From Candidatus Danuiimicrobium aquiferis (GTDB lineage Bacteria; Omnitrophota; Omnitrophia; Omnitrophales; Danuiimicrobiaceae): a stretch of DNA of 64,000 nucleotides. A program made the translations under genes and the position numbers. The notes beneath the pieces are model-generated. The model made no database searches. It saw nothing but the letters and a program-made list of their open reading frames with translations, and was not told where the DNA came from. Shown here one piece after another: positions 1 through 47,195 of this stretch. The stretch lies in NCBI GenBank assembly GCA_001804285.1, contig MHFR01000042.1, positions 14,725-78,724 on the forward strand, read 5' to 3'. Position 1 is the first letter of the stretch. The number at the start of each line of letters is the position of its first letter.

Positions 1-85
1 AGTTTATAAAAATAGGCCGGATGAACTACGGAAAAATACACAAGATGCAAACCGCGTCAGATGGTATTTTGAGCAAATTGCAAGA

Positions 86-9112: not shown

Positions 9113-9175
9113 AACATGGAAATTCATAAAAAACAGTAGGCAGTTGCCAGTCGGCAGTAAGCAATTAGCACTAAG

Positions 9176-9232
9176 AAAAAAGGGGACACACAGCTCGACC
9201 AATTCGAACAAGCTGTATGTCCCCTTTTTTTA
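9176..9232 (+). terminator. Rho-independent terminator after giant ORF
   Basis: The stem is ggggacacacagc / gctgtatgtcccc, followed by a run of 7 T. It is nested in a larger imperfect palindrome spanning 9140-9280. Confidence 0.7.
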
Positions 9233-9436
9233 CTTTTTGCTATCCTGTATGTGCAGACTGCTGCCTGCCGACTGCTTACTCTTTTCCCCAACTTACTTAT
9301 TGACTAAATTTATCTGCATATTATAATCATACCACTTTTTAAAGACTTTTTATTCCACTACAAAGTACCAGTTTTTTAATGTTTCAAAAGCTTAAAAAGT
9401 TCTATTTATAAGCTACTTAAAAAGAGAAGGCTTACT

Positions 9437-13992: not shown

Positions 13993-14991
13993 ATGAAAGA
14001 ATTAATTTTGGAATTAAAAGAGCGTGTGAAAACCGGCGGCGAAATTTCTTATGAAGAAGCGCTTATGCTTGCGGAAGTGACGGAAGAAGTCAACATAGAT
14101 CAATTGCGGGAAGCGGCGCATGAGCTAACGATTCATTTTCATCAGAATAAGCCAAGCCTTTGTTCGCTCGTGAATGCAAAAAGTTATTTGTGTGGCGAAG
14201 ATTGCCGGTTTTGTGCGCAATCCGTTCATTATCAGACGTTGACGGAGCGCTATGGACTGATTGGAATTGATGAGATTGCGGAAGCCGGGAAAAAAGCCGA
14301 AGCTGCCGGAACGCGGCATTTTTGTATTGTAACGAGCGGCGCAGCTTTGGAAGAGGATGAATTTGAAAAAGTGACCGAAGCTGTGAAACGGCTCAGGGCG
14401 GAAACGGCGCTCGAAATCGATGCGTCGATTGGGCATTTAAGCCTTGAACGCGTGAAACGCCTAAAAGAGGCGGGACTGCGGCGGGTCAATAATAATGTGC
14501 AGTGTTCGCATGCGTTTTATCCGAAAATTGTATCGACCCATTCATACGAAGACCGTTTGGAGACGTTGCGGAATTTGCGCGAGGGCGGCCTTGAAATTTG
14601 TGCTGGCGGAATTTTAGGAATGGGAGAAAGCCGGGAAGACAGAATTCAAATGGCGTTTGAGCTCAAAGCCTTTCAGCCCGAATGTTTTCCCGTGAATATT
14701 TTAAACCCACGCCCGGGGACACCGCTTGAACGGATGCCGCGGTTAGATCTTCAGGAAATCATTAAAACCATCGCGATTTATCGTTTTATTCTTCCGAAAT
14801 CCGTTATTAAACTTGCCGGAGGCCGCGAATTTAACTTGGGAAAATTTCAGGAAAAAGTTCTTCGGGGCGGCGCCAATGGCCTTGTGATCGGCGGCTATCT
14901 GACGACGTGCGGGAACCCCGTTTCGGAAGACATGAAGATGCTTGAACGGGCAGGGTATGTGTTGGGAAATGGCACAGCGAAGGCAGAGTAG
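13993..14991 (+). CDS. bioB: Biotin synthase
   Basis: The radical-SAM motif 'CGEDCRFCAQS' is present. The sequence is BioB-like throughout. An RBS 'gaggaag' precedes the start. Confidence 0.9.
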   Translation: MKELILELKERVKTGGEISYEEALMLAEVTEEVNIDQLREAAHELTIHFHQNKPSLCSLVNAKSYLCGEDCRFCAQSVHYQTLTERYGLIGIDEIAEAGKKAEAAGTRHFCIVTSGAALEEDEFEKVTEAVKRLRAETALEIDASIGHLSLERVKRLKEAGLRRVNNNVQCSHAFYPKIVSTHSYEDRLETLRNLREGGLEICAGGILGMGESREDRIQMAFELKAFQPECFPVNILNPRPGTPLERMPRLDLQEIIKTIAIYRFILPKSVIKLAGGREFNLGKFQEKVLRGGANGLVIGGYLTTCGNPVSEDMKMLERAGYVLGNGTAKAE

Positions 14992-15029
14992 GGCATAAGT
15001 AGTTGTGTTTAATAGAAGATAGAAATTTT

Positions 15030-15155
15030 AATGACCAAATCCGCCCTCCAAAAGACATGGCGGGCAGGCAATGACGCAAAGAAATCCCAACAGAATAATT
15101 CCCAATTGGGCCTTGAAATTTTGAAACTTCCTTGGCCATTGCGGATTTGGTCATT
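15030..15155 (+). repeat. MITE family C (terminal inverted repeats aatgaccaaatccgc ... gcggatttggtcatt) followed by T-run; acts as bioB terminator
   Basis: The 14-nt termini are perfect inverted repeats. Related copies lie at 20609-20694 and, partially, at 24522. Confidence 0.7.
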
Positions 15156-15191
15156 GGGATTTTTTTTACTAAAAATTGTGACCTAAAACTT

Positions 15192-15920
15192 ATGAACATT
15201 ACCTTATCCAACAAAACCATCCTCATCACCGGCGGAACGGGTGCGCTTGGGCGGGCTTTTGTGGAAAGTGCCTGCAAGGAAGGTGCTCAAGTTTTTTTTA
15301 CCTATTTTCGCCACTCGGAAGAAGCTAAACGTTTGGAAACCTTGGGCGCAAAAGGATTTCATGTTGATTTGGCTCAACGGTCTGAAATCGATCGTTTGGT
15401 AAGGGATCTCAGCGCTTGTACGATGGAATTAGACGCGGTGATTCACAATGCCGCGATTGTGCGCGACAAGACGCTCGCAAATCTTTCAACGGAAGACTGG
15501 GATGAGGTGTTGGCTGTCAATTTAGATGCCGTATATTATTTGACAAAGCAATTGTTGCCGATAATCACGAGAAAGCCGGGCGCTAAAATTTTGAATATTG
15601 TCAGCCGAGTCGGTTTGCGCGGTAATTTTGGGCAAGTGAATTATGCGGCGGCCAAAGGTGGATTGATTGCATTAACGAAAACGCTTGCGAAAGAGTTAGG
15701 ACGAAAAGGGATTTTGGTGAACGGATTGAATCCCGGTTTTATGAAATCGGAATTGACGAAAGGTCTTCCTGAGGATGTGATTGAGCGGAATGTGAAGGAA
15801 AGTCCGCTTCGGACAATTTCTGATCCCAAAGAAGTCAGCGATTTTTTAATTTATTTGTTATCGGATCATGTTCAACATGTTACCGGCCAGATTTTTCATT
15901 ATGATTCAAGGAGTGTTTGA
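15192..15920 (+). CDS. 3-oxoacyl-ACP reductase-like short-chain dehydrogenase (FabG-like) in bio locus
   Basis: It carries 'TGGTGALG' Rossmann and YxxxK-type SDR motifs. ATG 15192 is preferred because the ORF-track start at 15132 lies inside the MITE. Confidence 0.75.
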   Translation: MNITLSNKTILITGGTGALGRAFVESACKEGAQVFFTYFRHSEEAKRLETLGAKGFHVDLAQRSEIDRLVRDLSACTMELDAVIHNAAIVRDKTLANLSTEDWDEVLAVNLDAVYYLTKQLLPIITRKPGAKILNIVSRVGLRGNFGQVNYAAAKGGLIALTKTLAKELGRKGILVNGLNPGFMKSELTKGLPEDVIERNVKESPLRTISDPKEVSDFLIYLLSDHVQHVTGQIFHYDSRSV

Positions 15921-15946
15921 AAAAAACAAGAGGGAGAAAGTAAAAA

Positions 15947-16297
15947 ATGGGAACAAAGAGAAACAAACAGTGTTTAAAGATGATGGTTGCATTGATCATA
16001 TTTTTTGTGTTGCATCAGGGCTGGACATGCGCAGCGGCCGGTGAAAAAGATAATGATTTAAGTAAAAAGGTTGATCAGCAAGTGTTCAATATGGCGTGTC
16101 CGATTATAAAAGGAATTACTCTGAACGATGTAGATCGCATTATTCAAGAGTTTCGGCAATCGAAAATATATATATGGGTAAAAGAAAAATATTCCGGTAT
16201 CGATCAAAAAATCGACGAGTATAAGAAAGGTATCATTGAGTTGAAGGCGAAGTGCGAACAAAAAACCGGAAGCGAGAAGAACACTAACTCTGGGTAA
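15947..16297 (+). CDS. Small secreted hypothetical protein
   Basis: 116 aa with an N-terminal signal peptide. It is not an ACP, since it lacks the DSL motif. Confidence 0.35.
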   Translation: MGTKRNKQCLKMMVALIIFFVLHQGWTCAAAGEKDNDLSKKVDQQVFNMACPIIKGITLNDVDRIIQEFRQSKIYIWVKEKYSGIDQKIDEYKKGIIELKAKCEQKTGSEKNTNSG

Positions 16298-16328
16298 TTA
16301 TTTAGAGATTTGAAGTTATTAATAAATT

Positions 16329-16376
16329 CCCTCACCCTAACCCTCTCCCTCGGGGAGAGGGCAGGGGTGAGGGGTG
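16329..16376 (+). repeat. GC-rich nested palindrome family B (ccctcaccc..ccctctccc-tcgg-ggagaggg..gggtgaggg)
   Basis: The same architecture occurs at 26835-26881. An expanded copy sits in-frame in the GH1 gene at 22981-23140. Confidence 0.8.
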
Positions 16377-16406
16377 ATCCGGGCGAATAAATCAAAAAGG
16401 GAATCC

Positions 16407-17618
16407 ATGAATAAAGTTGTTATTACCGGCATTGGAGTGGTTTCGCCGATCGGGAACAATGCGGATGAATTTACAAGATCCCTGAAACAGGGAATCGTGG
16501 GCCGCCGGAGCCTTCATGAAGCCAATCCGGAGCGGTTCAAAGAGTTTGATGCGGATGAAATAGCGTTTCCTCTCTCCGGTTTTAAGCCGCCTCCTTACGC
16601 GAAAATTCTCGATCCGAATATTCAATATTCCATGGCTGCAACGGAAGAAGCGCTTTCAGATAGCCGGCTTGATTTATCATGGGTGGATCATGAACGGATC
16701 GGAATTGCGGTCAGCTCAAGCAAGGGCGGGATGTACACGTTTGAACATTATAATGAACGGATGCAGAATAGGCCGAGCGCTTTGGTGGCGGCACGCGTTT
16801 ATGCAAATTTACTTCCGAATATTGCGACGCAATGGATTGCGCGGCATTGGGAACTCCGCGGACCGGCAAAAGTGGCGGTGGCGGCTTGCGCAACGGGTTT
16901 ATTTGCAATCATCGAAGGAATTCGGATGATTGAACAGGGAGAGGCCGATTGCTGTATTGCGGGTGCGGGAGATGCCTCGCTAACGAGACTGATGCTTGCC
17001 GGTTACCGGCAAATGGGAGTTTTGTCAAAAAATAAAATGATCCGGCCGTATGATCTGCGGCGTGACGGGTTTCTGATCGGAGAAGGGGCGGGCATTTTAA
17101 TTCTGGAAAGCGAGGTGTATGCGAAAGCACGGAAAGCCAATTGTTATGGGAAAGTGCGCGCGCATGTTTATGGGTTTGAACCGTCTCATCCGATTTCATT
17201 TGATGAGCGGAGTAACGGCCTTGAACGATGTTTGCAGGAACTTTTGAAGCGGGGAGGGATTAAGCCGCGCGAAATTGATTATTTAAATTTACATGGTACC
17301 GGGACGCAAAGCGGCGACCGTTACGAAACGGCGCAAATCAAAAAAGCCTTTGGACAGGATGCGTATCAGATTCCGGCAAGCTCAACAAAATCGATGACGG
17401 GACACATGGTCGGCGCTTCGGGCGCCGTGGAAGTGATTACTTCTTTGATTGCGATGCGGGACGGGTTTATTCCGCCGACAGCAAATTTGGAAATACCGGA
17501 TCCGGTTTGCGATCTTGATTGCACGCCGCTTCGTTCCAAGGATAAGAAAATCAATTTGGCATGCTCGATTTCACTCGGTTTCGGCGGTCAACTGGCGGCA
17601 ATATTGCTTGAGAAGTAA
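16407..17618 (+). CDS. Beta-ketoacyl-ACP synthase I/II-type condensing enzyme (FabF/FabB-like) in bio locus
   Basis: It has the Cys-His-His triad: 'AACATG', 'HGTGTQSGD' and 'GHMVGASGAVE'. The start is ATG 16407, 'MNKVVITGIGVVSPIG'. Confidence 0.8.
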   Translation: MNKVVITGIGVVSPIGNNADEFTRSLKQGIVGRRSLHEANPERFKEFDADEIAFPLSGFKPPPYAKILDPNIQYSMAATEEALSDSRLDLSWVDHERIGIAVSSSKGGMYTFEHYNERMQNRPSALVAARVYANLLPNIATQWIARHWELRGPAKVAVAACATGLFAIIEGIRMIEQGEADCCIAGAGDASLTRLMLAGYRQMGVLSKNKMIRPYDLRRDGFLIGEGAGILILESEVYAKARKANCYGKVRAHVYGFEPSHPISFDERSNGLERCLQELLKRGGIKPREIDYLNLHGTGTQSGDRYETAQIKKAFGQDAYQIPASSTKSMTGHMVGASGAVEVITSLIAMRDGFIPPTANLEIPDPVCDLDCTPLRSKDKKINLACSISLGFGGQLAAILLEK

Positions 17619-17623
17619 ACGCT

Positions 17624-17880
17624 TGTCTCATTAACTCCTCGGCGCTCGGACAACGTCCGCCAAGGGCGGCCGAACTCGCGGCGAGGAGTTAATGAGACAA
17701 CTGGTTTACATCTACTCATAATTGTCATTCCCGCGGAAGCGGGAATCCAGACGCCGCTTTGGGCTCCCCGGACTTGTCCGGGGGGGAATGGCGCCCGAAG
17801 GGCGAGCCGAGCAGGGAACGAAAAAATTCCCAGCGAGGCCAGATGTTGGAAGGTGCCCCGGGCTTGCCCGGGGGGAAACC
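17624..17880 (+). repeat. Repeat-packed intergenic region: 19-bp-stem palindrome (ttgtctcattaactcctcg...cgaggagttaatgagacaa), half copy of MITE family A (17724-17750), and two ccccgg..ccgggg hairpins
   Basis: The inverted repeats were read directly from the sequence. The 'ccgaactcgcgg' core recurs at 22054-22080 and 22165-22176. Confidence 0.7.
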
Positions 17881-17903
17881 ACATTTATAGTTAAGGAGCG
17901 ATT

Positions 17904-19043
17904 GTGAAATTTGATTGGATTCGTAAAGAGCTTGAAAGCCTTTCGGACAAGAGCCTCTACCGCAAACCGCGGCTTCATGAAAACATTCAGGGAACACACG
18001 CCACCGTTGACGGGCGCGAGGTGATTTTATTTTCCGGAAATAATTATTTAAATTTGAGTCAGCATCCGAAAGTCATAGAAGCGGCGAAGTGCGTGCTTGA
18101 GACGCACGGTGTCGGTGCCCGGAGCGCCCGGCTTATTTCGGGAACAACGGATTGGCATGTTCGTCTCGAAGAGCGGATGGCGAAATTTCTAGGCAAAGAA
18201 CGTGCGCTCGTATTTTCCGCGGGCTATCTGACCAATGTCGGAACGATTCCCGCGCTTGCGGGCGAAGAAGACCTCATTATTATGGACAAGCTGAATCACG
18301 CGTCTCTTATTGATGCCGCAAAATTAAGCAGCGCGGCGATTCGAGTGTATCCGCATTTGAATATGGATTATTTGGAAAAACTTTTGAAAGGCGCCAAGGC
18401 CCGACGGATTTGGATTGTGACTGATTCCGTATTTAGCATGGACGGAGACCTTGCACTTCTTCCCGAACTTATCCGCCTGAAAAATCAATATGGCGCATAC
18501 TTGGTTGTCGACGAGGCGCATGGCGTTGGCGTGTTCGGGAAAAACGGTTGCGGTGTCTGTGAGTATTTCGGTATTTCGGATGAGGTGGATGTTTTAATGG
18601 GAACACTTTCCAAGGCGATCGGCGGACTCGGAGGATTTGTCGCGGGGAAAACGGAATTGATTGAATATTTAATCAATCATGCGCGGACTTTTCTTTTTGC
18701 GACGGCTTTGCCGCCTTCGATTTGCGCGGCTTGCGTTCAAGCGATCGATTTGATTGAAAGCGAACCTGTTCTTCGTCAAACATTATGGCGAAACGTTGAT
18801 TTGCTGATGAGCGGCTTAAAGAAAGCGCATGCCCCGATTTTAGAAACCCGGTCTCCGATCATTCCTGTTATTTTTGGTGACGAGAAAAAAACGCTCGATG
18901 CCAGCAAATATCTTTTTGACCACGGATTTTTTGTGCCTGCCATCCGTTACCCGACGGTTGCCAAAGGCAAAGCCCGGCTCCGCATTACCCTTTCAAGTGC
19001 GCATACCGAAGTCGAAATACAGGCGCTGGTTGCTTCGTTCTAA
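17904..19043 (+). CDS. bioF: 8-amino-7-oxononanoate synthase
   Basis: GTG start follows an RBS 'aaggag'. The sequence is a class-II aminotransferase-like AONS carrying the PLP-Lys region 'TLSKAIGGLGG'. Confidence 0.85.
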   Translation: MKFDWIRKELESLSDKSLYRKPRLHENIQGTHATVDGREVILFSGNNYLNLSQHPKVIEAAKCVLETHGVGARSARLISGTTDWHVRLEERMAKFLGKERALVFSAGYLTNVGTIPALAGEEDLIIMDKLNHASLIDAAKLSSAAIRVYPHLNMDYLEKLLKGAKARRIWIVTDSVFSMDGDLALLPELIRLKNQYGAYLVVDEAHGVGVFGKNGCGVCEYFGISDEVDVLMGTLSKAIGGLGGFVAGKTELIEYLINHARTFLFATALPPSICAACVQAIDLIESEPVLRQTLWRNVDLLMSGLKKAHAPILETRSPIIPVIFGDEKKTLDASKYLFDHGFFVPAIRYPTVAKGKARLRITLSSAHTEVEIQALVASF

Positions 19044-19133
19044 TTTTTTTAAGCGGAAGGGGGGTGAGAATTTTTGCCTGTCCCTTTTTATTTTTGCTAA
19101 AATCGAGTCCATGAAAGTAAAGGCGTTCAACCG

Positions 19134-20597
19134 ATGACACAAAATCATTCTTCATTTAGAGATCTTGTTAATTTCGTCGTCCGGAATGGCGAAATGAGAA
19201 ATCGATTATTATTCACGGCGGGCATCCTCATCCTTTTTAAGCTGGCGTCTTTCATTCCGCTTCCGGGCATTGATATTGTTAGCGCTCGGGAATTTGCGGA
19301 AAGTTCGTTTATGCAATTGTCCAAGTTTGAATATTTATCTAAAGTATCCGTGTTGATGTTGGGAACGGCTCCGTTTCTTTCCGCGTGTTTATTAATCCAA
19401 TTTGCGACGGCCGTCATTCGTCCATTAAGAGCCGCGTCTTTTGGCGGTGAGGTGGGAAGAGAATTGATCACGCGATTGACGATTTTGATTGCCTTAATCT
19501 TGAGTTTGATTCAGGGCTTATTGATCGGTCAATTGCTCGAACAGCCCAATTCCTTCGGCGGCGGTGTTTTAGTTCCGAGTCCCGGTTGGGGATTCCGGCT
19601 GATGTGTATGCTCACTATGACGGCTGCAACGGTGTTGATTTATTTCGCTGCGCAAGCAATTCATCGGTATGGAATCGGAAACGGATTTGCGCTGATGACC
19701 GTTTTGTATGTTCCGTTCGAATTTATTTTTGCCGTTCGAAAAACAATCGCTGAAATTCAAATAAAAATGGTTTCAATCGAAGGGTTTATTATTTCCGGTA
19801 TCTTGGGGATTCTTTTTTTTGTGGCGCTTCTTTTAATGTCAAAGGTAAAAGAAAGGATTCCGTTAGTCAAGAACGGAAGCGACGCCGGAGAAATCGGCGT
19901 AAGGCTGACGATGGCCGGCAAGATGCCTTTTGTTTTGGCTGGAGTGATGATGATGCTTCCGAGCGTTTTGAGTATTTATAGAAATATTCCAATGTTAGAT
20001 CAGGCCTACAGTGTCATCACGAAAAATGGTTATGCCGAGAAAGGACTGTACGTCCTCTTTATATTTATTTTTACGCGCTTTTATTTCCTTCTTGTCTTTG
20101 ATACAAAATATGTTTGTTCGCTGATCCATCGGTATGGTTATCAAATCAAAACTGCAGGGGGCCATGAATCCGAGACGAAATTTTTATCCGTACGGTTAAA
20201 GAAAATGCAAACCGGAGCGGGGCTGTTTTTAACATTCGTTTTTCTTTTTCCGGTTTTTGCGATCTCTCTTGCGAAGCCTGAAAATTCTCTCATTTTATTT
20301 ATCCGCGATATTGGTCTTCTTTTACTGATCGGTGTTGCGCTTGATTTTCTGGCGCAGATTAAATTTTTAAAATTGAAATACGATTCCGGAGTCGGGAAAT
20401 GGGCCGTTGCCTATACGGCTTTCGACGAAATCGAAGCGGATGTGAAGCGTATATTTTTGAACGGGAATGAAATTCCGGCACTTATCGAACCGCTTCGATT
20501 TTCCTGGGGGCTTCCCATCCGGACGATGGTGGACGAGTACCGGTTGTATGTGCCGGGGGAGAAGGTTGAGGAGGCGCGGAGAGTGCTTGAAAGATAA
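19134..20597 (+). CDS. Divergent SecY-like protein with C-terminal DUF2007-like domain
   Basis: SecY transmembrane signatures are conserved: 'RLLFTAGILILFKLASFIPLPGID', 'LGTAPFLSACLLIQ', 'RYGIGNGFALM' and 'LLLIGVALDFLAQI'. The extra ~75 aa 'WAVAYTAFDEIEADVKRIFLNGNEIPALIEPL...EYRLYVPGEKVEEARRVL' resemble DUF2007. It does not lie in a ribosomal spc operon. Confidence 0.65.
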   Translation: MTQNHSSFRDLVNFVVRNGEMRNRLLFTAGILILFKLASFIPLPGIDIVSAREFAESSFMQLSKFEYLSKVSVLMLGTAPFLSACLLIQFATAVIRPLRAASFGGEVGRELITRLTILIALILSLIQGLLIGQLLEQPNSFGGGVLVPSPGWGFRLMCMLTMTAATVLIYFAAQAIHRYGIGNGFALMTVLYVPFEFIFAVRKTIAEIQIKMVSIEGFIISGILGILFFVALLLMSKVKERIPLVKNGSDAGEIGVRLTMAGKMPFVLAGVMMMLPSVLSIYRNIPMLDQAYSVITKNGYAEKGLYVLFIFIFTRFYFLLVFDTKYVCSLIHRYGYQIKTAGGHESETKFLSVRLKKMQTGAGLFLTFVFLFPVFAISLAKPENSLILFIRDIGLLLLIGVALDFLAQIKFLKLKYDSGVGKWAVAYTAFDEIEADVKRIFLNGNEIPALIEPLRFSWGLPIRTMVDEYRLYVPGEKVEEARRVLER

Positions 20598-20608
20598 GAA
20601 AAAAATTC

Positions 20609-20694
20609 AATGACCAAGCACGCAATAACCAAAGAAATTTCAAAATTTCAAATCCCAATTGGGTATTATTCGTTTGGGATTTTATTGGTCATTG
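20609..20694 (+). repeat. MITE family C copy (aatgaccaa...ttggtcatt)
   Basis: It shares termini and internal 'aaagaaat..tcccaattggg' blocks with the copy at 15030-15155. Confidence 0.65.
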
Positions 20695-20743
20695 GAGTTT
20701 TATATATAATATAATTTCGACGACTAATAAAATACCAAACCCT

Positions 20744-21979
20744 ATGAACAAAATACTCATTATCGGCGGCGGACCGGCAGGGATGATGGCGGCGATTCGT
20801 GCCGCGGAATTGAAACAAGATGTGACGATCGTCGAAAAAAATAATTCGCTTGGCCGCAAATTGTTACTCACCGGAAACGGCAGATGCAATCTCACCAACG
20901 CTTGCGATCTCAATTCCTTTCTTGAATCCTGCTCAAACAACGATTTTTTGAGAGGCGCGTTTAAACATTTTTTCAACCGGGAATTGATGGCGTTTTTCGA
21001 ATCACGCGGGCTTAAATTAAAAATGGAAGAAAATAACCGGGTTTTTCCCGTGACAGATCGCGCACAAAGCGTTCTTGAGATATTACAGAAAGAAACAGCA
21101 AAATATAAAATCAACGTGCTGTACGGGCTTAATATTAAAGAGCTATTGGTTAAAAATGAGAAAGTTTCCGATGTTTTTCTTTCGGACGGAAAAACATTAT
21201 TGGCAGATAAAATTATTTTAGCAACCGGCGGAGCGAGCTATCCGTCAACGGGTTCTAACGGAGAAGGGATCCGAATAGTGGGCCGTTTGGGGCATGAGAT
21301 TATTCCGCTCCGGGCCGGCCTCGCTTCTATGGAAATAAAAGAAGCGTATCCTAAAGCATTGGAAGGGCTTACTTTACAGAAAATCCGGCTCCGGTTTCAT
21401 AGTGATAAAAACGAGATATATTCACCCGTTGGAGATATTTTATTTACAAAAAATGGAATTTCAGGGCCGCTTGTTTTATCGTTAAGTGGGAAAGTTGGAG
21501 GATGGTTTGGCGGATCTCAAAAGGTTTTTATCGACATTGATTTAAAGCCGGAATCCGATCAAGCAAAAATTGATTCGGAATTTCTCGCACTTCTTCAGGC
21601 AAATCCGAAGAAGCAGATAAAGAATGTTCTTCAATTGTTGATGCCGGACCGGTTTGCGGCCGTTTTGATTGACGCTGCGAAAATTCCGGGAAATAAACTT
21701 GCCAGCCAGATCAGCCGAAAAGAACGGACAGAACTCGTTTCTTTAATCAAAGGGTTCCGGATGGAAATTTTGAAAACAGCGCCGATAGATAAAGCCATGA
21801 TTACCTGCGGCGGAGTTTCGACGAGAGAGATTAATCCGTTGACGATGGAATCGAAAATAGTTCGCGGGCTTTATTTCGCGGGAGAAATGATTGATGTGGA
21901 TGGCGACTCGGGCGGTTTTAATTTGCAGATCGCATTTTCAACCGGTTATTTAGCCGGGCAATCTGCGGCCAGCGAATGA
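20744..21979 (+). CDS. HI0933-family (BaiN-like) NAD(P)/FAD-dependent flavoprotein
   Basis: 'ILIIGGGPAGMMAAIRAAE' and 'TGNGRCNLTN' are diagnostic of the HI0933 family. Confidence 0.8.
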   Translation: MNKILIIGGGPAGMMAAIRAAELKQDVTIVEKNNSLGRKLLLTGNGRCNLTNACDLNSFLESCSNNDFLRGAFKHFFNRELMAFFESRGLKLKMEENNRVFPVTDRAQSVLEILQKETAKYKINVLYGLNIKELLVKNEKVSDVFLSDGKTLLADKIILATGGASYPSTGSNGEGIRIVGRLGHEIIPLRAGLASMEIKEAYPKALEGLTLQKIRLRFHSDKNEIYSPVGDILFTKNGISGPLVLSLSGKVGGWFGGSQKVFIDIDLKPESDQAKIDSEFLALLQANPKKQIKNVLQLLMPDRFAAVLIDAAKIPGNKLASQISRKERTELVSLIKGFRMEILKTAPIDKAMITCGGVSTREINPLTMESKIVRGLYFAGEMIDVDGDSGGFNLQIAFSTGYLAGQSAASE

Positions 21980-21990
21980 AATCAGCAGTT

Positions 21991-22080
21991 CAAGGCGGTG
22001 TTTGCCCGCTCGGACAGCGTAAAAAGCTAAGCGGGGAGACTATGCCGCTTTTTCCGAACTCGCGGAGAAACACCGCCTTG
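21991..22080 (+). repeat. Large imperfect palindrome (caaggcggtgtttgcccgctcgg ... ccgaactcgcggagaaacaccgccttg)
   Basis: It lies downstream of the flavoprotein gene and shares the ccgaactcgcgg core with 17665 and, in reverse complement, with 22165. Confidence 0.6.
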
Positions 22081-22364
22081 AGCTGCCGCTTATTATCCAA
22101 GCTACGGAAAATTTTGTTCGAGAAAAATAACAATGAAAGAAAAAAGGCGTAACATGGTGGTTATCCGCGAGTTCGGGAAAAGCGATTGACTTTCACTAAT
22201 TAGCTTTTTCCGCTGTCCGTCCTTGAGCCTCATTAAATTTTATTTATTGGGGAAGCTCAAGAACGGTACTGACTACCGAATTAATACTATCTTTGCGTTT
22301 CTTAAATGAAAGTCAGTGCCGAGCGGGAACCACCATGTTGCGCCGGTGGGTTAAGGTGTCTATG

Positions 22365-23789
22365 AAAAAGGAAAAATTTTCCTTTCCACCCAACTTCCTT
22401 TGGGGCGCAGCCACGTCCTCGCATCAAGTCGAGGGGGACAACCGGAATAATGACTGGTGGGAGTGGGAAGAAGCGGACCGGGTGAAGGAAAAATCCGGAA
22501 AAGCCTGTGACCATTGGAACCGGTTTCGTGCGGATTTTGCGCTTGCGAAATCGCTCGGCCACAACGCGCACCGGTTTTCCATTGAATGGAGCCGGATCGA
22601 GCCGGAAGAAGGCATATTCAGCGAAGAAGCGCTTTATCATTACGGTGAAATGATTAAGACGCTCCGGATATTCGGAATCGAGCCGATGGTGACATTCTAT
22701 CACTTCACGATTCCGCTTTGGTTTGCGAAAAAAGGAGGGTGGCTTCTCGATGAATCTCCCGAAATTTTTGCGCGCTATGTGAGAAAGGTGGTTGAAACAA
22801 TCGACACGCCGGTCCGTTACTGGATTACGATGAATGAAATGATGGTGTATGTCTACAAAGGATTTATTGCCGGAGAATGGCCGCCGGGTGAGAAGTCATA
22901 CGAAAAAGCATTTCGCGTGTTGGGGAATTTGTTAAGAGGGCATGTGCTTGCCTACCAAGTCATTAAAGAGATAACCGCCACTCACCCCCTCCACACTAAT
23001 GGCGGGCAAGCTAACCCTCTCCCTCAGGGAGAGGGCAGTCCAAACTCCCACAGGCAGTCCTTGCAGCGAAGCGGAGAGGGCAGTCCAAACTCCCACAGGC
23101 AGTCCTTGCAGCGAAGCGGAGAGGGCAGGGGTGAGGGGTTGGTTGGTGTTGCGCAGTTTTCGGCCGTTTATGCGCCTTGTTCAAAATGGTCGTGGCGGCA
23201 TCGCTTATCGACATGGTTCCGGGCAAAAATGACAAATCATCTTGCAACCGAAGCGATGGTTTACGGAAAAGTGAATTATCCGGGTTTGTTTCAAATTAAA
23301 CTGCCGCGTGCCAGGACGCTTGATTTTATCGGGATTAATTATTATACGCGCTATTTCATTCACAATCGCGGATTTAACGCAGCAGGCCTTTTGGGTGATG
23401 ATTGCACGCTCGAACATCATCGCGATGTGGGCAAGCGAACCATGATGGACTGGGAAATTTATCCTCGCGGACTTTCTCAGCTGGTGAAAGAATTTTCAAA
23501 ATATAAATTGCCGATTTTGATTTCCGAAAACGGAATAGCAACCGCTGATGACAATGAACGCGCGGAATTTATTCAGAATCATTTGGGCGAACTCGCTCGC
23601 GCGATGTCCGAAGGTGCAAACGTCATCGGTTACCTTTATTGGTCCCTTCTCGACAATTTCGAGTGGGCCGACGGTTTTTTCAAACGTTTTGGCCTCATTG
23701 AAATCGATTACACCAACCAGCACCGCCGCGTCCGAAAGTCCGCGGAAAAATTTGCAGAGATTTGTGCTCACGGAGAAATTTTGATATAA
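22365..23789 (+). CDS. GH1 beta-glucosidase carrying an in-frame ~55-aa insertion derived from a palindromic repeat
   Basis: GH1 motifs are intact: 'FLWGAATSSHQVEG', 'HRFSIEWSRIEP', 'TMNEM', nucleophile 'ISENG' and 'WSLLDNFEW'. ATG 22365 with RBS 'aaggtg' is the likely start. Confidence 0.8.
   Translation, partial: KKEKFSFPPNFLWGAATSSHQVEGDNRNNDWWEWEEADRVKEKSGKACDHWNRFRADFALAKSLGHNAHRFSIEWSRIEPEEGIFSEEALYHYGEMIKTLRIFGIEPMVTFYHFTIPLWFAKKGGWLLDESPEIFARYVRKVVETIDTPVRYWITMNEMMVYVYKGFIAGEWPPGEKSYEKAFRVLGNLLRGHVLAYQVIKEITATHPLHTNGGQANPLPQGEGSPNSHRQSLQRSGEGSPNSHRQSLQRSGEGRGEGLVGVAQFSAVYAPCSKWSWRHRLSTWFRAKMTNHLATEAMVYGKVNYPGLFQIKLPRARTLDFIGINYYTRYFIHNRGFNAAGLLGDDCTLEHHRDVGKRTMMDWEIYPRGLSQLVKEFSKYKLPILISENGIATADDNERAEFIQNHLGELARAMSEGANVIGYLYWSLLDNFEWADGFFKRFGLIEIDYTNQHRRVRKSAEKFAEICAHGEILI
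22981..23140 (+). repeat. Family-B GC-rich palindrome plus 48-nt perfect tandem duplication, inserted in-frame in GH1 gene
   Basis: The element runs 'ccctctccctcagggagaggg' ... 'gggcaggggtgaggggt'. The unit 'gagggcagtccaaactcccacaggcagtccttgcagcgaagcgga' occurs twice, encoding GEGSPNSHRQSLQRSG twice. Confidence 0.8.
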
Positions 23790-23890
23790 AAATAAGTTAA
23801 ATTAGAGCTGCAAATTGAGCATGAATCTCCTCTAAACATAGTGTACAATGGCGCCTCTAAAATCAGACTGAACTCGGGAGGTATTTATTT

Positions 23891-24514
23891 ATGGCATTAG
23901 CGGTGGCAAAAGAAACAGAAAAAGATCAGCTTCGGCAGAAAACGCTGGATGTGGCGAAGCGGCATAAAGCATCATGGATTGAACTTGGCCAATATCTTTA
24001 CAGCATTCATAAGGATAAACTTTTCAAAGGGTGGGGCTATTTAACATTTGAAGGGTATTGCAAAACAGAGCTCGGAATTAAAGAAACGACCGCCGCGAAG
24101 CTTCTGAAATCATATTATTTTCTTGAAAAAGAAGAACCGCAGATTGCAAAGGGAGATTTCACCGAAGAAGACACGGCGAAAACAATTCCGAATTATGAAT
24201 CAGTCAATATTTTGAGGCTTGCCAAAGAAAATAAAAATATTGCACCGGCGGATTTTGCAGATTTGCGTTCGGCCGTTATTGATTCCGCGAAAGAACCGAA
24301 GGAAGTAAAAGCGCAATACCGGAAGTTACTTTCGGACCGGGAAGTGAAGGATCCCGTTGAAGTCCGGAAAACGCGCCGGAATGCCGCGATTAAACGGCTC
24401 ATTACGATTCTTGACAATACCAAGCATGAACTTGGCAATGAACATCTTCTCCCGGATTATTTGCTCAAGCAGATCGATGATTTGAAGAAGAAGCTGCAGG
24501 ACCAATTAGAATAA
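23891..24514 (+). CDS. Hypothetical charged/coiled protein
   Basis: An RBS 'gggagg' precedes it. I recognise no family. Confidence 0.4.
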   Translation: MALAVAKETEKDQLRQKTLDVAKRHKASWIELGQYLYSIHKDKLFKGWGYLTFEGYCKTELGIKETTAAKLLKSYYFLEKEEPQIAKGDFTEEDTAKTIPNYESVNILRLAKENKNIAPADFADLRSAVIDSAKEPKEVKAQYRKLLSDREVKDPVEVRKTRRNAAIKRLITILDNTKHELGNEHLLPDYLLKQIDDLKKKLQDQLE

Positions 24515-24643
24515 AAAGGCTAATGACCAAATCTGCCCGCTAAACAACATGAGGCCTGTCTGTATGGCACCGGAAACGTTTTGCTTCAAGCAATCATAGA
24601 GACAGACGTTTCCTTTTACCTTCAACTTATCGGGTGCGCTTGA

Positions 24644-25081
24644 ATGGATAGATTAAAAAGATTATTTTTATTAGGATTGCTTTTTTTTATTCTGACTGGC
24701 GCCGATTATACTGATTATGAAGAATTCAAAGTGAAGTGGATCCACAGTGTGGCACAGGAAGTGACGCTGAAAGGGGAGTCCGGCATTTATCCCGTCAAAC
24801 CGTGGACTAAGGAATGGGACACAAATGGGGACTTGAAAATTGATTCCCGCGAAATAGTTCCGATGCTGAAATTTGTCGAAGATTGGCGAGTCCACCGGTT
24901 GTGGCAGGTGGTCCACAAGATTGATGCCGAAGGGGCTGATAAAGTCCATATTACTCGGAAACGTTTTCTAAGTAAGTGGGACACAAACGGCGATTGGTAC
25001 ATTGACTCCACGGAAGTTGCTCCCGTAAGGGAAGAGTTAAACAGGGTGAACGATCAGCGTCTTCAGGACGGACACTATTAG
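24644..25081 (+). CDS. Secreted EF-hand-like calcium-binding protein
   Basis: It has a signal peptide and two DxNxDxxIDSxE loops: 'DTNGDLKIDSREI' and 'DTNGDWYIDSTEV'. Confidence 0.5.
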   Translation: MDRLKRLFLLGLLFFILTGADYTDYEEFKVKWIHSVAQEVTLKGESGIYPVKPWTKEWDTNGDLKIDSREIVPMLKFVEDWRVHRLWQVVHKIDAEGADKVHITRKRFLSKWDTNGDWYIDSTEVAPVREELNRVNDQRLQDGHY

Positions 25082-25220
25082 CATAATACTCGTAATAATT
25101 AAATATAAGTCATAAAAAATTCCGGAATATTTTCTCGCGATAACGCACCGGCGGGCAGACAAACGTTTATTCCGTGGCCATGTAAAAAGAAATCATACAA
25201 GTAAAATTGTGGCCTTTCGT

Positions 25221-25322
25221 GTCATTCCCGCGAAAGCGGAAATCCATAGTTCGATGGATCTCCGCTTAAAGCACGGCGGAGCAGTGCTGCTTCGCTGCAT
25301 GAGGGGATGACATAAAGTACGG
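25221..25322 (+). repeat. MITE family A variant with expanded second hairpin
   Basis: 'gtcattcccgcgaaagcggaaatcc...ggatctccgc...gaggggatgac'. Confidence 0.7.
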
Positions 25323-25436
25323 CGCCAAAGGACACAATTTTAATTGCATGCTCTAAAAAGACATCCCCAACCAATTCACTTTCCATATCTCTTAATCATT
25401 GCTATAATTATTCCTTTCGGAGGAAAGCGAGAAAGT

Positions 25437-26831
25437 ATGCCTGTTGCCAGCCAAAAGAGACAATCCGCCAAGCGGGAAAAGTTTGACCAGAAGCTTCTTA
25501 CCAATTGGGATAAACAGTTTATCTGGCATCCGTTTACGCAGATGAGCGATTGGGAAAAAGAGGATATTCTCGTTATCGAGTCGGGAAAAGGATCTTATCT
25601 GAAAGATGTGAACGGGAAACGTTATTTAGACGGCGTTTCTTCGCTTTGGTGCAATGTTCATGGTCACCGCATAAAAGATTTGGATCAAGCGGTGAAAAGC
25701 CAGCTTACCCGGGTTGCTCATTCCACTTTTTTGGGGCTATCGAACGTCCCCGCCATTTTGCTCTCAAAGAAATTGATCGAAATTATGCCGGAAGAACTCA
25801 CACGCGTTTTTTATTCAGATTCTGGTTCGGAAGCCGTTGAAATTTCGCTCAAAATCGCATATCAATATTGGCAGCACAAAGGGGAGAAAACGCGGAAAAA
25901 ATTTTTAAGATTGACAAACGCTTATCACGGAGACACGATCGGATCGGTCAGTGTCGGCGGAATGGATTTATTCCACGAAATTTATAAACCCCTTCTTTTT
26001 GATTCTGTCGAGGTGAAAGCACCGTACCGTTATCGCGACGCATTCATCGGGGGTGAGGAAGAATATACAAATGATTGCATTGAGCGGCTTGAAAATGTCC
26101 TTAATCAACACAAGAATGAAATCTGCGCATTCATCATGGAACCTCTTGTGCAGGGCGCGGCAGGCATGATTCTTCAACCGCCGGGGTATCTTGCGGCCGT
26201 CCGTCAAATAACGAAGAAATACGATATTCTTCTCATCCTTGACGAAGTAGCAACGGGGTTTGGCCGGACGGGAAAAATGTTTGCGTGCGAACATGAATCG
26301 GTTTCGCCGGATATCATGTGCGTTGCCAAAGGGTTGACCGGCGGATACCTTCCGCTGGCCGCGACATTTGCAACGGAAGAAATTTACCGGGCATTTCTTG
26401 GAAAATATGAAGATGCAAAAACGTTTTTTCACGGACATACTTATACGGCCAATCCGCTTGCGTGCGCGGTTGCGCTTGCGAATATCGAATATTTTGAAAA
26501 AGAAAATGTTCTTCAAAATTTACAACCCAAGATCAAAATCTTATGCGAAGGCCTGGAAAATTTCAGGGAGCTGAAACATGTCGGTGACATCAGGCAGTGC
26601 GGTTTCATGGTGGGCATTGAACTTGTCAAAGGCAAAAAAGATAAAACCCCATACGAAATGAAAGAAAAAATAGGAATCCGCGTCATTCAGAAAGCGCGTT
26701 CTCTCGGTGTGATTTTGCGGCCGCTCGGGAATGTCATTATTTTAATGCCACCGCTTGGGATCACCGTTGTGGAGCTCAGGAAATTATTGCGCGTGACGTA
26801 TCAATCGATCCGGTTTGTGACTGAAGGATAA
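25437..26831 (+). CDS. bioA: Adenosylmethionine-8-amino-7-oxononanoate aminotransferase
   Basis: It is a class-III aminotransferase with 'ILDEVATGFGRTGKMFA'. ATG 25437 follows an RBS 'ggagg'. Confidence 0.85.
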   Translation: MPVASQKRQSAKREKFDQKLLTNWDKQFIWHPFTQMSDWEKEDILVIESGKGSYLKDVNGKRYLDGVSSLWCNVHGHRIKDLDQAVKSQLTRVAHSTFLGLSNVPAILLSKKLIEIMPEELTRVFYSDSGSEAVEISLKIAYQYWQHKGEKTRKKFLRLTNAYHGDTIGSVSVGGMDLFHEIYKPLLFDSVEVKAPYRYRDAFIGGEEEYTNDCIERLENVLNQHKNEICAFIMEPLVQGAAGMILQPPGYLAAVRQITKKYDILLILDEVATGFGRTGKMFACEHESVSPDIMCVAKGLTGGYLPLAATFATEEIYRAFLGKYEDAKTFFHGHTYTANPLACAVALANIEYFEKENVLQNLQPKIKILCEGLENFRELKHVGDIRQCGFMVGIELVKGKKDKTPYEMKEKIGIRVIQKARSLGVILRPLGNVIILMPPLGITVVELRKLLRVTYQSIRFVTEG

Positions 26832-26834
26832 AAG

Positions 26835-27624
<790 letters not shown>

Positions 27625-27642: not shown

Positions 27643-29553
27643 ATGCCTAAAAAAATCTTAGTCGCAATGTCCGGCGGTGTCGATAGTTCTGTCGCAGCCG
27701 TTCTGCTGAAAGAAAAAGGCTTTGAAGTTGGCGGTGCAACCATCCGGATTTGGCCGGAAGGGCATTGTGAAGAAAAAAATGAAAATTCGTGCTGTGGCCT
27801 CCGCGGCGTGCGTGACGCACAGAGCGTGGCGTTAAAACTCGATATTCCCCATCACGTTTTCAATTTTTCCGCACCCTTTCAAACGGGTGTGATTGATTAT
27901 TTTGCAAATGAGTACAAGTCCGGGAAAACACCGAATCCGTGCATCGCTTGCAATCAATACATCAAATTTACGCTTCTTCTTGAGCGGGCCCGGCTTCTTG
28001 GGTACGATTCGATCGCAACCGGCCATTATGCGCGTGTTTGCTTTGATCAGAGAAGTGGACGTTATTATATTTCAGAAAGCAAAGATTTCTCAAAAGACCA
28101 ATCGTATGTGCTGTTTGGACTTCCTCAGGATGTGCTCGCGAACCTTTCGCTCCCGCTCGGGGATTATACAAAAAAAGAAGTAAGGGAAATTGCAAAAAAA
28201 ACAAAATTGAAAGTGGCTGACAAACCTGATTCACAGGACATTTGTTTTATTCCGGATCATGATTACGGAAAATTTCTGGAGCGGGAACGGGGAATGAAAC
28301 CGATAACGGGTCCGATTGTGGATTTGAAGGGGAAAAAACTGGGAGAACACGAAGGATACTATCATTATACGATCGGGCAGCGAAAAGGACTTCGAGTCCC
28401 GTTTCAGTTTGCGCTTTATGTTGTGGCGATTGATCCTGAAACGAATACGGTTGTGGTGGGCCCGAAGGCTGCGGTGAAAAAGAAAGAGTGTTTGGTTGGA
28501 AACGTGCAATGGTTTTTACCTCCGGATAGCAAAATCCAAAAACCGATTGAAGCAAAAATCCGAGCGCGGCACAATAAAGCACCCGCGAAAATTGAGATCG
28601 TTTCCAATGACGAAGTGAAAGTTGTCTTTGATGAGCCGCAGGACGCGATTACGCCGGGGCAGGCGTGTGTATTTTATGATGGGACGCAAGTACTGGGCGG
28701 CGGCTGGATTGAAAAATTTCCATGGCCACATCCTTTTGCGGCCGGTTCTGCCGGTTACCAAAAATTGAAGCAAATTATTTCCGGATATCAAAGTGTGGTC
28801 GTCGCATTTTCCGGAGGGGTTGATTCGGCCCTTCTGCTTAGAGTTGCTTATGATGTATTAGGCCGGGATTCGGTTTTAGCCGTGACTGCGGCCAGTGAAT
28901 CGATCGCTTCGCGTGAACTCGAGGAAGCCAAGCGGATTGGGAAGGAAATCGGCGTCAACCACCGGATTGTTTCAACGATGGAAATCAAAAATCCAAATTA
29001 TATATCAAACTCCAACCGGCGCTGTTATCACTGCAAAGGGGAATTATATAAACAGTTGAAGGATTTATTGAAAGAAACCGGATTCAGAGAAATCATTTGC
29101 GGGACAAATATGGACGACCTTTCTGATTTTCGTCCCGGGCACGATGCCGCAAGCGAATATGGCGTCAAAAATCCGCTTGTTGAGGCGGGGCTTCATAAAC
29201 ATGATGTCCGGGCCCTAAGCCGAGAGCTGGGCTTGCCGGTTTGGGATAAACCGGCCTCGCCATGCCTTGCCAGCCGCATTCCTTATGGAAGCGAGATTAA
29301 ACCGGAAAAATTACGTCAAATCGAGAATGGGGAGAACTTTCTGAAAGATCTTAGTTTTCGGGAGGTCCGGCTAAGGCATTTTGGCCAAAATGCAAAAATT
29401 GAGCTTGGCGAAGAAGAGTTAAATCGATTGAAAGATCACGAATTGCGTGAGAAAATCATTCAGTTTATTCGCTCTCTTGGCTTTGAAACCGTGGTTTTTG
29501 AACCGTTTCGAAGCGGCAATTTGAATGACAAGCGAACGGAAAATAACCAATGA
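27643..29553 (+). CDS. mnmA: tRNA 2-thiouridylase MnmA fused to a C-terminal LarE/TIGR00268-type PP-loop domain
   Basis: The N-terminal ~360 aa carry 'VAMSGGVDSSV' and MnmA Cys motifs. The C-terminal ~270 aa carry a second PP-loop 'AFSGGVDSAL', 'CYHCK' and 'PCLASRIPYG'. Confidence 0.75.
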   Translation: MPKKILVAMSGGVDSSVAAVLLKEKGFEVGGATIRIWPEGHCEEKNENSCCGLRGVRDAQSVALKLDIPHHVFNFSAPFQTGVIDYFANEYKSGKTPNPCIACNQYIKFTLLLERARLLGYDSIATGHYARVCFDQRSGRYYISESKDFSKDQSYVLFGLPQDVLANLSLPLGDYTKKEVREIAKKTKLKVADKPDSQDICFIPDHDYGKFLERERGMKPITGPIVDLKGKKLGEHEGYYHYTIGQRKGLRVPFQFALYVVAIDPETNTVVVGPKAAVKKKECLVGNVQWFLPPDSKIQKPIEAKIRARHNKAPAKIEIVSNDEVKVVFDEPQDAITPGQACVFYDGTQVLGGGWIEKFPWPHPFAAGSAGYQKLKQIISGYQSVVVAFSGGVDSALLLRVAYDVLGRDSVLAVTAASESIASRELEEAKRIGKEIGVNHRIVSTMEIKNPNYISNSNRRCYHCKGELYKQLKDLLKETGFREIICGTNMDDLSDFRPGHDAASEYGVKNPLVEAGLHKHDVRALSRELGLPVWDKPASPCLASRIPYGSEIKPEKLRQIENGENFLKDLSFREVRLRHFGQNAKIELGEEELNRLKDHELREKIIQFIRSLGFETVVFEPFRSGNLNDKRTENNQ

Positions 29554-45795: not shown

Positions 45796-45821
45796 TAGAA
45801 GTTTTAATAAAGGAGCTTATC

Positions 45822-47177: not shown

Positions 47178-47195
47178 TTAAATGGATGGAATAAA

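Follow-up and report, generated by a model that had tools for sequence, protein, structure and literature searches.

The question raised by the locus described here is whether a SecY-like gene located outside the ribosomal gene cluster and extended at its C-terminus by a further domain encodes the housekeeping channel of its host or a channel of another kind. The gene is found in a stretch of 64,000 nucleotides from Candidatus Danuiimicrobium aquiferis (assembly GCA_001804285.1, contig MHFR01000042.1)—the whole stretch being referred to as the window—where it occupies positions 19134..20597 of the forward strand and is complete, the list of open reading frames (ORFs) giving an ATG start and 487 amino acids followed by a stop codon. 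An initial annotation, made from the nucleotide sequence alone, had proposed a stand-alone divergent SecY paralog fused to a DUF2007-like domain, possibly with a dedicated or regulatory role as a translocon. The results presented below define a rare and distinct subfamily of SecY, apparently undescribed, whose domain architecture is new and whose canonical coupling loops are lost; judged from sequence, a dedicated or regulatory translocon role is plausible.

Concerning the host, the cluster formed at 90% identity around the fusion protein includes the NCBI entries OGW80554.1, OGW92070.1, OGW97387.1 and OGX04460.1, assigned to 'Omnitrophica bacterium RIFCSPLOWO2_12_FULL_44_17' and 'RIFCSPHIGHO2_02_FULL_45_28', and the bearer of the gene is an uncultured Omnitrophota bacterium from groundwater, namely the Rifle-aquifer 'Ca. 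Danuiimicrobium aquiferis' population. The protein is labelled 'hypothetical protein' in NCBI and 'Protein translocase subunit SecY' of Candidatus Danuiimicrobium aquiferis in UniRef, the precomputed public Pfam annotation listing PF00344 alone for every member of the family. No differences (0/1464) were found in the DNA of the gene across contigs of four independent samples from ENA, Logan and JGI, and since the synteny around it is also the same in those samples, the fusion is no assembly artefact.

The first part of the protein, residues 1-418 (19134..20387, +), represents a SecY core with ten transmembrane (TM) helices in the canonical order and a short C4 β-hairpin. The Pfam profile PF00344 matched the fusion protein with 119.1 bits (gathering score 32.2) and an E-value of 3.3e-34, covering the profile positions 1-305 of 306 and the residues 72-405, and the phmmer search against solved SecY chains pointed to the SecY from Thermus thermophilus (E 2.4e-35). 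The NCBI equivalog model for SecY, TIGR00967, by contrast, aligned with residues 22-410 at 142.8 bits, i.e. 111 below its required 253.6. Because the former two matches are strong and the last one stays under its cut-off, the protein is a true, yet strongly diverged member of the SecY family, in agreement with what had been proposed. The AlphaFold2 model of the full-length protein, based on 42 sequences, has a predicted local distance difference test score (pLDDT) of 91.6 and a predicted template modelling score (pTM) of 0.90; ten long helices can be seen in it, together with the short C4 hairpin and, at the C-terminus, a folded domain. When compared by Foldseek with solved SecY chains, it gave an E-value of 3e-18 and target-normalised template modelling scores of 0.75-0.86, the upper values (0.84-0.86; root mean square deviation 3.1-3.5 Å) belonging to substrate-engaged SecA–SecY complexes and the lowest one (0.75; 5.1 Å) to the resting T. 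thermophilus channel. This closer match of the model to the substrate-engaged than to the resting SecY may, with caution, be taken as a conformational hint.

The sequence motifs were followed in an alignment of 17 family members with 26 canonical SecYs, i.e. 25 canonical sequences plus the SecY from Escherichia coli (NC_000913.3). The GIGNG motif in the turn between TM4 and TM5, a retained hallmark of the SecY core (residues 180-184; 19671..19685, +), has its G180, G182, N183 and G184 invariant in 17/17 family members, the G and N positions being found in 26/26 canonical proteins, too. The PLPG motif is conserved in the family, with invariance confined to its last two residues, and the motifs of TM2b, TM7 and TM10 are retained as well. 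The initial annotation, which had all the hallmark SecY motifs present, is therefore right for the membrane core, including the core gate motifs, but not for the cytosolic elements or the plug. The C5 loop between TM8 and TM9 (residues 334-347, YGYQIKTAGGHESE; 20133..20174, +) is degenerate and replaces the canonical G-F-I-P-G-I-R-P-G; the motif (F/Y)(I/L)PG(I/V)RPG, present in all 26 canonical SecYs, is seen in none of the 17 family members, and the same counts hold for the equivalents of the E. coli G355, R357 and P358. The C4 loop, i.e. the hairpin between TM6 and TM7 (residues 239-257; 19848..19904, +), is truncated by a deletion of the ~10-residue tip that bears R255, R256 and Y258 in E. 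coli—the alignment has a gap at 255-258 in 17/17 members—although both strands of the hairpin (residues 239-246 and 249-257) are still present in the AlphaFold2 model. Finally, the basic C-terminal tail of the canonical SecY is replaced in the family by the DUF2007 domain.

The plug region (TM2a; residues 59-72; 19308..19349, +) is short and without the canonical FSGG, and its residues 59-68 form the sole low-confidence stretch of the model (pLDDT <50). Across the family, the plug positions are unconserved and the plug varies in length, being deleted in several members. As far as the pore ring is concerned, most family members have hydrophobic residues at five of its six positions, two of which are Thr in the window protein (T78 and T189), and the position of I278 is occupied in the family by G, V, S, Q or A. 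In SecYEG, the ribosome and SecA dock on a platform formed by the C4 loop, the C5 loop and the C-terminal tail. According to the alignment, the family has removed this platform and carries another domain in its place; the missing docking loops strengthen the view of a non-housekeeping SecY.

This other domain spans residues 419-487 (20388..20594, +), follows TM10 after a linker of ~5 residues and, because of its placement after that helix, is cytoplasmic. The C-terminal extension noticed initially is thus real and similar to DUF2007, its comparison with the DUF2007 profile, however, having a divided outcome: the isolated tail (the last 69-75 residues) matched PF09413 over practically the full length (profile positions 3-64 of 66; E 0.005-0.007), but the 16.9-17.4 bits obtained stayed below the gathering score of 25.7. 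Singly, 13 of the 17 family members match PF09413 at E<=1, the best of them at 3.6e-5. An exhaustive hidden Markov model search of 1.84 billion representative proteins with the profile of the C-terminal domain retrieved, ranking below the fusions, stand-alone proteins of ~63-155 amino acids, for which DUF2007 was the top Pfam family in 10/10 cases tested, five of them above the gathering score. HHalign of the fusion C-terminal domains against these stand-alone DUF2007 proteins gave a probability of 99.5% and an E-value of 8.5e-23 over 73 columns, the test not being fully independent, since the stand-alone set had been selected by the same C-terminal domain profile. Profile comparisons thus place the domain in the DUF2007 superfamily, an assignment that may be considered solid at the superfamily level. 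To our knowledge, DUF2007 has no known function. A search of the PDB sequences with the domain profile gave one 26-residue match to cathelicidin, which was rejected as spurious.

No part of the family protein is better conserved than the C-terminal domain, whose mean column identity is 49% with invariant residues D, E, A, L, P, W and T, though the whole proteins are only 27-37% identical. Its consensus reads W..Y.AFDEIEAEIKKGFL...I...IEPLRFTWGMPIRT.VD.YR.YVP. When modelled alone, the domain adopts the β-α-β-β-α fold with a pLDDT of 86, and its top Foldseek matches are PII, GlnK, GlnZ, CutA, PstA and the PII–NrtBCD complex 8wm7, i.e. PII/GlnB-like proteins. The loop between strands β2 and β3 (residues 455-469, RFSWGLPIRTMVDEY; 20496..20540, +) is family-specific and conserved, and is a candidate contact or 'lid' element; P453, W458 and T464 are invariant in this region, and R455, P461, D467 and Y469 are conserved at >=90%. 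The pLDDT of this loop (RFSWGLPIRT) rises from ~63 in the domain alone to 94-98 in the full-length model, which suggests, at the level of the model, that it packs against the SecY core.

With regard to the size of the family, a word-indexed search yielded 16 full-length relatives of 471-539 amino acids with 27-37% identity, the canonical SecYs (420-460 amino acids) standing clearly apart at ~24% identity and ~80% coverage. The exhaustive search with the C-terminal domain delivered 101 proteins when the E-value limit was set to 1e-3 and 77 clusters when it was set to 1e-10. Of the latter, 58 contain proteins of 420-625 amino acids having the domain at or close to the C-terminus, and the remaining 19 are shorter with the domain at the C-terminal end, the one checked (P0048) representing the C-terminal half of a SecY; all six long proteins tested from this search are SecYs by Pfam. 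When 185,579 species genomes were scanned, 13 full-length fusion loci and three remnants came to light. Six of the 13 are labelled Omnitrophota or Omnitrophica, and the others come from metagenome-assembled genomes (MAGs) labelled Planctomycetia, Deltaproteobacteria, Thermodesulfobacteriota, Pseudobdellovibrionaceae or just 'bacterium'. The distribution is thus patchy, and the family is rare, with Omnitrophota as its main bearers. The remnants, all three from Planctomycetales loci, were considered as stand-alone versions of the domain, an idea that was rejected in favour of truncated or pseudogenised fusion genes: one (L019:560-1000) is a decayed copy leaving a 146-residue stub with TM9-TM10 and the C-terminal domain, and the other two (L020:~9995-10195 and L021:~9990-10100) are stop-interrupted fragments of the domain on two large contigs belonging to a single MAG (CAZTCI01) with a Planctomycetales label. 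These decayed copies show the fusion gene to be dispensable in the MAGs that carry them.

The neighbour-joining tree calculated from the SecY-core columns separates 25 fusion proteins from 31 canonical SecYs in 300/300 bootstraps. Identity averages 0.29 for pairs of family members, 0.44 for pairs of canonical SecYs, which come from several phyla, and 0.25 for mixed pairs. Based on this split and these identities, the tree indicates a single origin and a faster evolution of the fusion family.

Several relatives exhibit further variation of the architecture. The protein P0111 (583 amino acids; L026:29-1780) combines the SecY core and the C-terminal domain with SecE (PF00584, 36.3 bits; gathering score 22.7), and P0106 (556 amino acids; L031:6288-7958) has a similar layout with a weak SecE match. 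P0058 (614 amino acids; L033:185-2029) carries a double zinc ribbon N-terminally to the SecY core and the C-terminal domain. The C5 motif is absent from all three of them. Zinc ribbons recur with the DUF2007-type domain, since not only P0058 has them, but P0117, a DUF2007 protein of the stand-alone type, also terminates in one. Besides, the last ~45 residues of P0122 (444 amino acids), a transporter of the major facilitator superfamily (MFS) type by a weak MFS_1 match, correspond to the C-terminal domain profile with E 2e-5, which hints that DUF2007-like domains may sit on other membrane transporters, too. No description of a SecY-DUF2007 or SecY-DUF2007-SecE architecture was found in the searchable literature, in which the papers on SecY2 deal with the Gram-positive SecA2/SecY2/Asp systems and DUF2007 is mentioned only in passing; the impression that the architecture had not been described is supported within that literature.

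The genomic context was read in the neighbourhoods of P0005, P0009, P0012 and P0006, in the 13 GTDB loci, and around P0106 and P0058, and shared neighbours were sought in 21 loci. In the window, the fusion gene is flanked by a BioF-like aminotransferase gene upstream and an HI0933-like flavoprotein gene downstream, so that it is, as initially noticed, outside any rplO-secY-adk context. Pfam detected no SecA, SecE, SecG, glycosyltransferase or spc ribosomal cluster among the window ORFs of >=150 amino acids, smaller ORFs of SecE or SecG size being unscanned; the absence of secA2, Asp and glycosyltransferase partners, also part of the original description, extends to 20 related loci. None of the 21 family loci, nor the SecE-fused variant, is located in an spc ribosomal cluster; around the P0106 gene there are purB, purL and purM as well as a gene for a small ankyrin protein, instead of ribosomal genes. 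The canonical-type P0020 and P0029, on the other hand, are both found in classical rplO-secY-map clusters. It may be added that P0029 (L024:6001-7503), a canonical SecY of 500 amino acids from such a cluster, has its own C-terminal extension of ~50 residues with an extra hydrophobic helix, i.e. a different type of SecY tail.

Twenty flanking genes annotated by Pfam gave a heterogeneous picture. Over the neighbourhoods read, the flanks cover metabolic functions—isocitrate/isopropylmalate dehydrogenase with Asd; purB, purL and purM; CMD—as well as integrase, HipA, AbiEii, Fic, ParE and transposase-like helix-turn-helix proteins. A ParE toxin/antitoxin-like gene pair is common to loci with two family members. 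Since nothing else is shared in the 21 loci and the flanks are heterogeneous, both an operon partner and a consistent defence-island location were rejected. The sole secretion-related neighbour in any locus is the signal peptidase I (Peptidase_S26) of L017, an Omnitrophota MAG, encoded at 9006-9860, 15 bp upstream of the family member at 9875-11362.

Whether the fusion acts beside a canonical SecY is the next point to be decided. No second secY is present within the 64-kb window, the NCBI twin of the window protein, P0136, leads back to the same locus, and the cluster look-ups of 20 canonical SecY matches contained no Omnitrophota seed. Omnitrophota genomes are reported to encode SecYEG, SecA, SecB and SecD (bioRxiv 10.1101/2023.11.21.568195). 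Taking together the loss of the invariant motifs, the low TIGR00967 score, the non-spc location, the rarity, the pseudogenised copies and that report, we infer that the gene is most likely an accessory SecY accompanying the canonical one of the same genome.

Based on the above results, the most probable reading—to which a probability of roughly 0.55 is assigned—is an accessory SecY-type channel that would pair with SecE, would not dock the ribosome or the canonical SecA, and would have its DUF2007/PII-like domain as a lid or adaptor in cis. It would keep the ten-helix hourglass channel fold of SecY, and its assembly with SecE is probably retained, because sister variants carry SecE in the same polypeptide; the SecE fusions of P0111 and P0106 thus argue for a translocon-type assembly. 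The channel may conduct proteins. The docking of the ribosome and SecA would be gone along with the C4 tip and the C5 arginine motif. The C-terminal domain, acting in cis as a lid or adaptor, would be seated over the cytoplasmic funnel and would control access to a weakly plugged channel, or, alternatively, would recruit a dedicated partner or substrate, replacing the ribosome and SecA. The nearest analogy for such a lid might be seen in the free PII-type proteins that regulate membrane transporters from the cytoplasmic face.

Several points weigh against this accessory channel with a lid or adaptor. The placing of the domain relative to the funnel is inferred, not taken from model coordinates; the Foldseek E-values of the domain against PII-type proteins are weak (~0.2), and the domain is without the T-loop, the very element with which PII proteins plug transporters. 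The conformational state predicted by AlphaFold2 is unreliable as evidence for an open channel, and long-branch attraction can inflate the neighbour-joining clustering of fast-evolving sequences. Moreover, all-against-all clustering of the ORFs from the 21 loci found no conserved neighbour except for the ParE toxin/antitoxin-like pair, and the examined loci contain no partner or substrate gene hinting at function. Finally, no canonical secY of the same genome was retrieved, the probe P0020, the closest of the canonical matches, giving SecYs from Verrucomicrobia, Kiritimatiellia and Lentisphaerae, and none from Omnitrophota.

It should be considered, then, whether the fusion might be the only, housekeeping SecY of the organism, relocated from the ribosomal cluster with an extra domain added. 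The intact ORF, the confident full SecY fold, the UniRef label and the ordinary housekeeping genes in the window would be compatible with that, as would the second secY not retrieved from the same genome; the idea is nevertheless very improbable, given that the protein lacks the C5 arginine motif shared by 26/26 canonical SecYs as well as the C4 tip, both established as needed for the docking of SecA and the ribosome. The protein is, furthermore, 111 bits under the NCBI equivalog cut-off and labelled 'hypothetical protein' there, truncated and pseudogenised copies are known (L019-L021), and the members differ among themselves (0.29) more than the canonical SecYs of several phyla do (0.44). The family was found in ~13 of 185,579 species genomes, as compared with 714 Omnitrophota MAGs of high quality counted in NCBI by itself (bioRxiv 10.64898/2026.06.07.730766), and the presence of SecYEG together with SecA in Omnitrophota (bioRxiv 10.1101/2023.11.21.568195) points in the same direction. 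The opposite extreme, a functionless, decaying secY duplicate, would account for the fast evolution, the loss of conserved motifs and the fragments or pseudogenes in some MAGs, but hardly any credence can be given to it in view of intact ORFs of 470-625 amino acids in at least 58 clusters, the strong conservation of the added domain (49% mean column identity, invariant residues), the confident AlphaFold2 model and the identity of the gene across independent samples.

Among the alternatives that leave the protein a function of its own, a SecY-derived pore that does not translocate proteins is unlikely; it might be a regulated channel for ions or small molecules, or a membrane-permeabilising effector of conflict or abortive infection, held shut by the PII-like sensor. 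The poorly conserved or deleted plug and the often small or polar residue at the pore-ring position 278 would suit such a pore, as would the lost docking loops for the translocation motor, the occurrence of the DUF2007-like domain at the C-terminus of the MFS-type transporter P0122, and, for a gene of the accessory or conflict type, the decayed copies, the patchy distribution and the integrase, HipA, AbiEii, Fic, ParE or transposase-like genes adjoining several relatives. The contexts, however, are mostly those of ordinary metabolic genes, including the biotin cluster of the window, and no recurring defence partner was seen in the family loci, the PADLOC defence library being unsearched; the other pore-ring positions are hydrophobic with the core gate motifs conserved, and the SecE-fused variants together with the neighbouring signal peptidase favour a translocon-type function.

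A private channel for the giant surface proteins of Omnitrophota, docked by their embedded SecA-like DEAD/preprotein-binding modules, with DUF2007 replacing the C4/C5 site, is an attractive, more specific form of the favoured reading, but appears still more doubtful. Such giants have been reported with SecA-like modules devoid of the scaffold and wing domains, their export being open (bioRxiv 10.1101/2023.11.21.568195; bioRxiv 10.64898/2026.06.07.730766), the fusion family is centred on Omnitrophota as well, the lost loops are exactly those contacting the canonical SecA, and a protein of at least 3037 amino acids is encoded 10 kb upstream in the window. The latter was considered as a linked SecA-module substrate and rejected, since in the visible part of its ORF WD40 propellers, but nothing SecA-like, were seen when the top 25 of 43 Pfam matches were considered; in the 21 loci, the fusion has neither a giant gene nor one of the SecA-like kind linked to it, and, judging by how common the giant genes seem, it occurs far less often than they do. 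The most far-reaching possibility, improbable as it is, would be a third kind of bacterial Sec channel working without the ribosome and the canonical SecA and controlled by a ligand or partner through the DUF2007 lid in cis on a weakly plugged channel, which in Omnitrophota could dock the SecA-like modules of giant proteins and offer these a way out of their own.

The accessory SecY-type channel favoured here can be set against the known systems. It shares with the canonical SecY (PF00344; TIGR00967) the ten-helix fold, the motifs GIGNG, TM2b, TM7 and TM10, the mostly hydrophobic pore ring and a probable SecE partner, but differs by its location outside the spc cluster, a score below the equivalog cut-off, the absence of the C5 FIPGIRPG with R357, of the C4 tip and of a conserved plug motif, and by the C-terminal DUF2007 domain instead of the basic tail. 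With SecY2 of the Gram-positive SecA2/SecY2/Asp systems, it has in common that both are divergent second SecY channels, presumably specialised beside the housekeeping SecY. At least in the accessory Sec systems treated in PMC5076819 and PMC5578698, the secY2 genes are found together with secA2, asp1-5, glycosyltransferase genes and the gene for a substrate of the serine-rich-repeat type. No accessory Sec partner genes accompany the fusion in the window ORFs of >=150 amino acids or in the 20 loci around fusion genes, its host is a diderm bacterium from the PVC group, and a DUF2007 domain is not known from SecY2; the distinction drawn here is one of gene context and domain make-up. The plastid SCY2, working with SECA2, is likewise a diverged SecY paralog parallel to the main channel, similar to the role proposed for the fusion, but it is eukaryotic and plastidial, has a dedicated SecA2 partner and is not known to have a PII-like domain.

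As to the C-terminal domain, it resembles the stand-alone DUF2007 proteins (PF09413, 'putative prokaryotic signal transducing protein') in its full-length alignment, in the β-α-β-β-α fold, in the common signature W...DE(I/M)EA...KG(F/Y)LE..GI.C.IEP and in the recurring association with zinc ribbons (P0117; in the fusions P0058), differing by its fusion to a membrane channel, the invariant β2-β3 loop RFxWGxPxRT and a score below the Pfam gathering threshold. The likeness to the PII regulators (GlnK–AmtB, SbtB–SbtA, PII–NrtBCD) would lie in the ferredoxin-like fold matches of the PII/GlnB type and, if the modelled arrangement holds, in the position at the cytoplasmic mouth of a channel. A PII/GlnB subunit has ~112 amino acids and a T-loop, is trimeric and binds nucleotides and 2-oxoglutarate, whereas the domain described here has ~65 residues, is devoid of both a T-loop and a fourth strand, and occurs as a cis fusion instead of a free trimer. 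Because it lacks the T-loop and is half the size, it is not filed as a PII protein, and the resemblance may be understood as an analogy of mechanism, not as family membership.

With regard to transcription, a promoter-like site TTGCCT-18-TAAAAT with a TG element (19074..19103, +; 9/12 matches) lies in the 90-bp gap between the stop codon of the bioF-like gene and the ATG of the fusion gene, and may give the latter its own transcription start. Directly 3′ of the fusion-gene stop codon, there is an imperfect palindrome (20623..20694, +; core CCCAATTGGG) with 41-nucleotide arms of 71% complementarity, which may end the transcript ahead of the promoter-like site of the next gene (TGGTCA-18-TATAAT, 20686-20715; 10/12 matches). 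It should be pointed out that promoter-like sites in this region are no more numerous than in shuffled sequence and are suggestive only.

The window as a whole represents an ordinary diderm chromosome, with genes for PolA, CoaE, Rho, RF1/PrmC, an EPSP-synthase-family enzyme, TrmD and RNase HII as well as Omp85, Rnf subunits and a TLC-like transporter; no tRNA or Rfam elements were detected in the scans of the window. The biotin cluster (13993-27624, +) is split: its upstream half contains BioB (radical SAM plus BATS), a FabG-like reductase, KAS and the BioF-like enzyme, and its downstream half a class-III aminotransferase (BioA candidate) and an AAA_26-domain protein (BioD candidate), the SecY-like gene, the HI0933 flavoprotein, a GH1 glycosidase and a 207-residue unknown protein standing between them as if inserted. 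The same arrangement is seen in the other samples (L027-L029). Within the GH1 gene (22293-23789), a perfect in-frame 45-bp tandem duplication (23028-23128, +; 2.2 copies, 100% match) repeats the 15-residue unit GEGSPNSHRQSLQRS in the middle of this glycoside hydrolase family 1 protein. Strong inverted repeats occur in the intergenic region after the KAS gene (17623-17700; 23-nucleotide arms, 96% complementarity) and between the HI0933 and GH1 genes (21980-22219; 64- and 30-nucleotide arms); both regions are crossed by several spurious ORFs and could be elements of the repetitive extragenic palindromic type or terminators.

The giant ORF, located at 2-9112 (+), is already open where the window begins and is truncated by the left edge, and has its WD40 β-propeller repeats at residues ~907-1204; very long proteins are a known trait of Omnitrophota. 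Further downstream (27643-29553, +), a 636-residue MnmA (tRNA 2-thiouridylase) with all three domains present bears an additional C-terminal PP-loop domain (NAD_synthase/QueC/ATP_bind_3-like, residues 380-493), which is an unusual fusion. The region 45088-51439 (+) encodes, in a row, a dual-specificity/tyrosine phosphatase, an Omp85-family protein, a 572-residue unknown protein and an 823-residue TLC ATP/ADP-transporter-like/MFS protein; a nucleotide-transporter homologue would suit the host-dependent lifestyle proposed for Omnitrophota.

SecY belongs to the most conserved membrane proteins of life, and, in the prevailing view, it cannot be coupled to the ribosome or SecA without its cytoplasmic C4 and C5 loops. 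A family that keeps the channel, drops both loops and adds a conserved PII-like domain, and at times SecE, would thus be a natural experiment in alternative coupling or gating of the Sec channel. The widespread DUF2007 would gain its first concrete functional context as a cytoplasmic module on membrane channels. Omnitrophota are predatory or episymbiotic nanobacteria, and for the giant surface proteins with SecA-like modules, whose export route is open, the family would offer a testable candidate.

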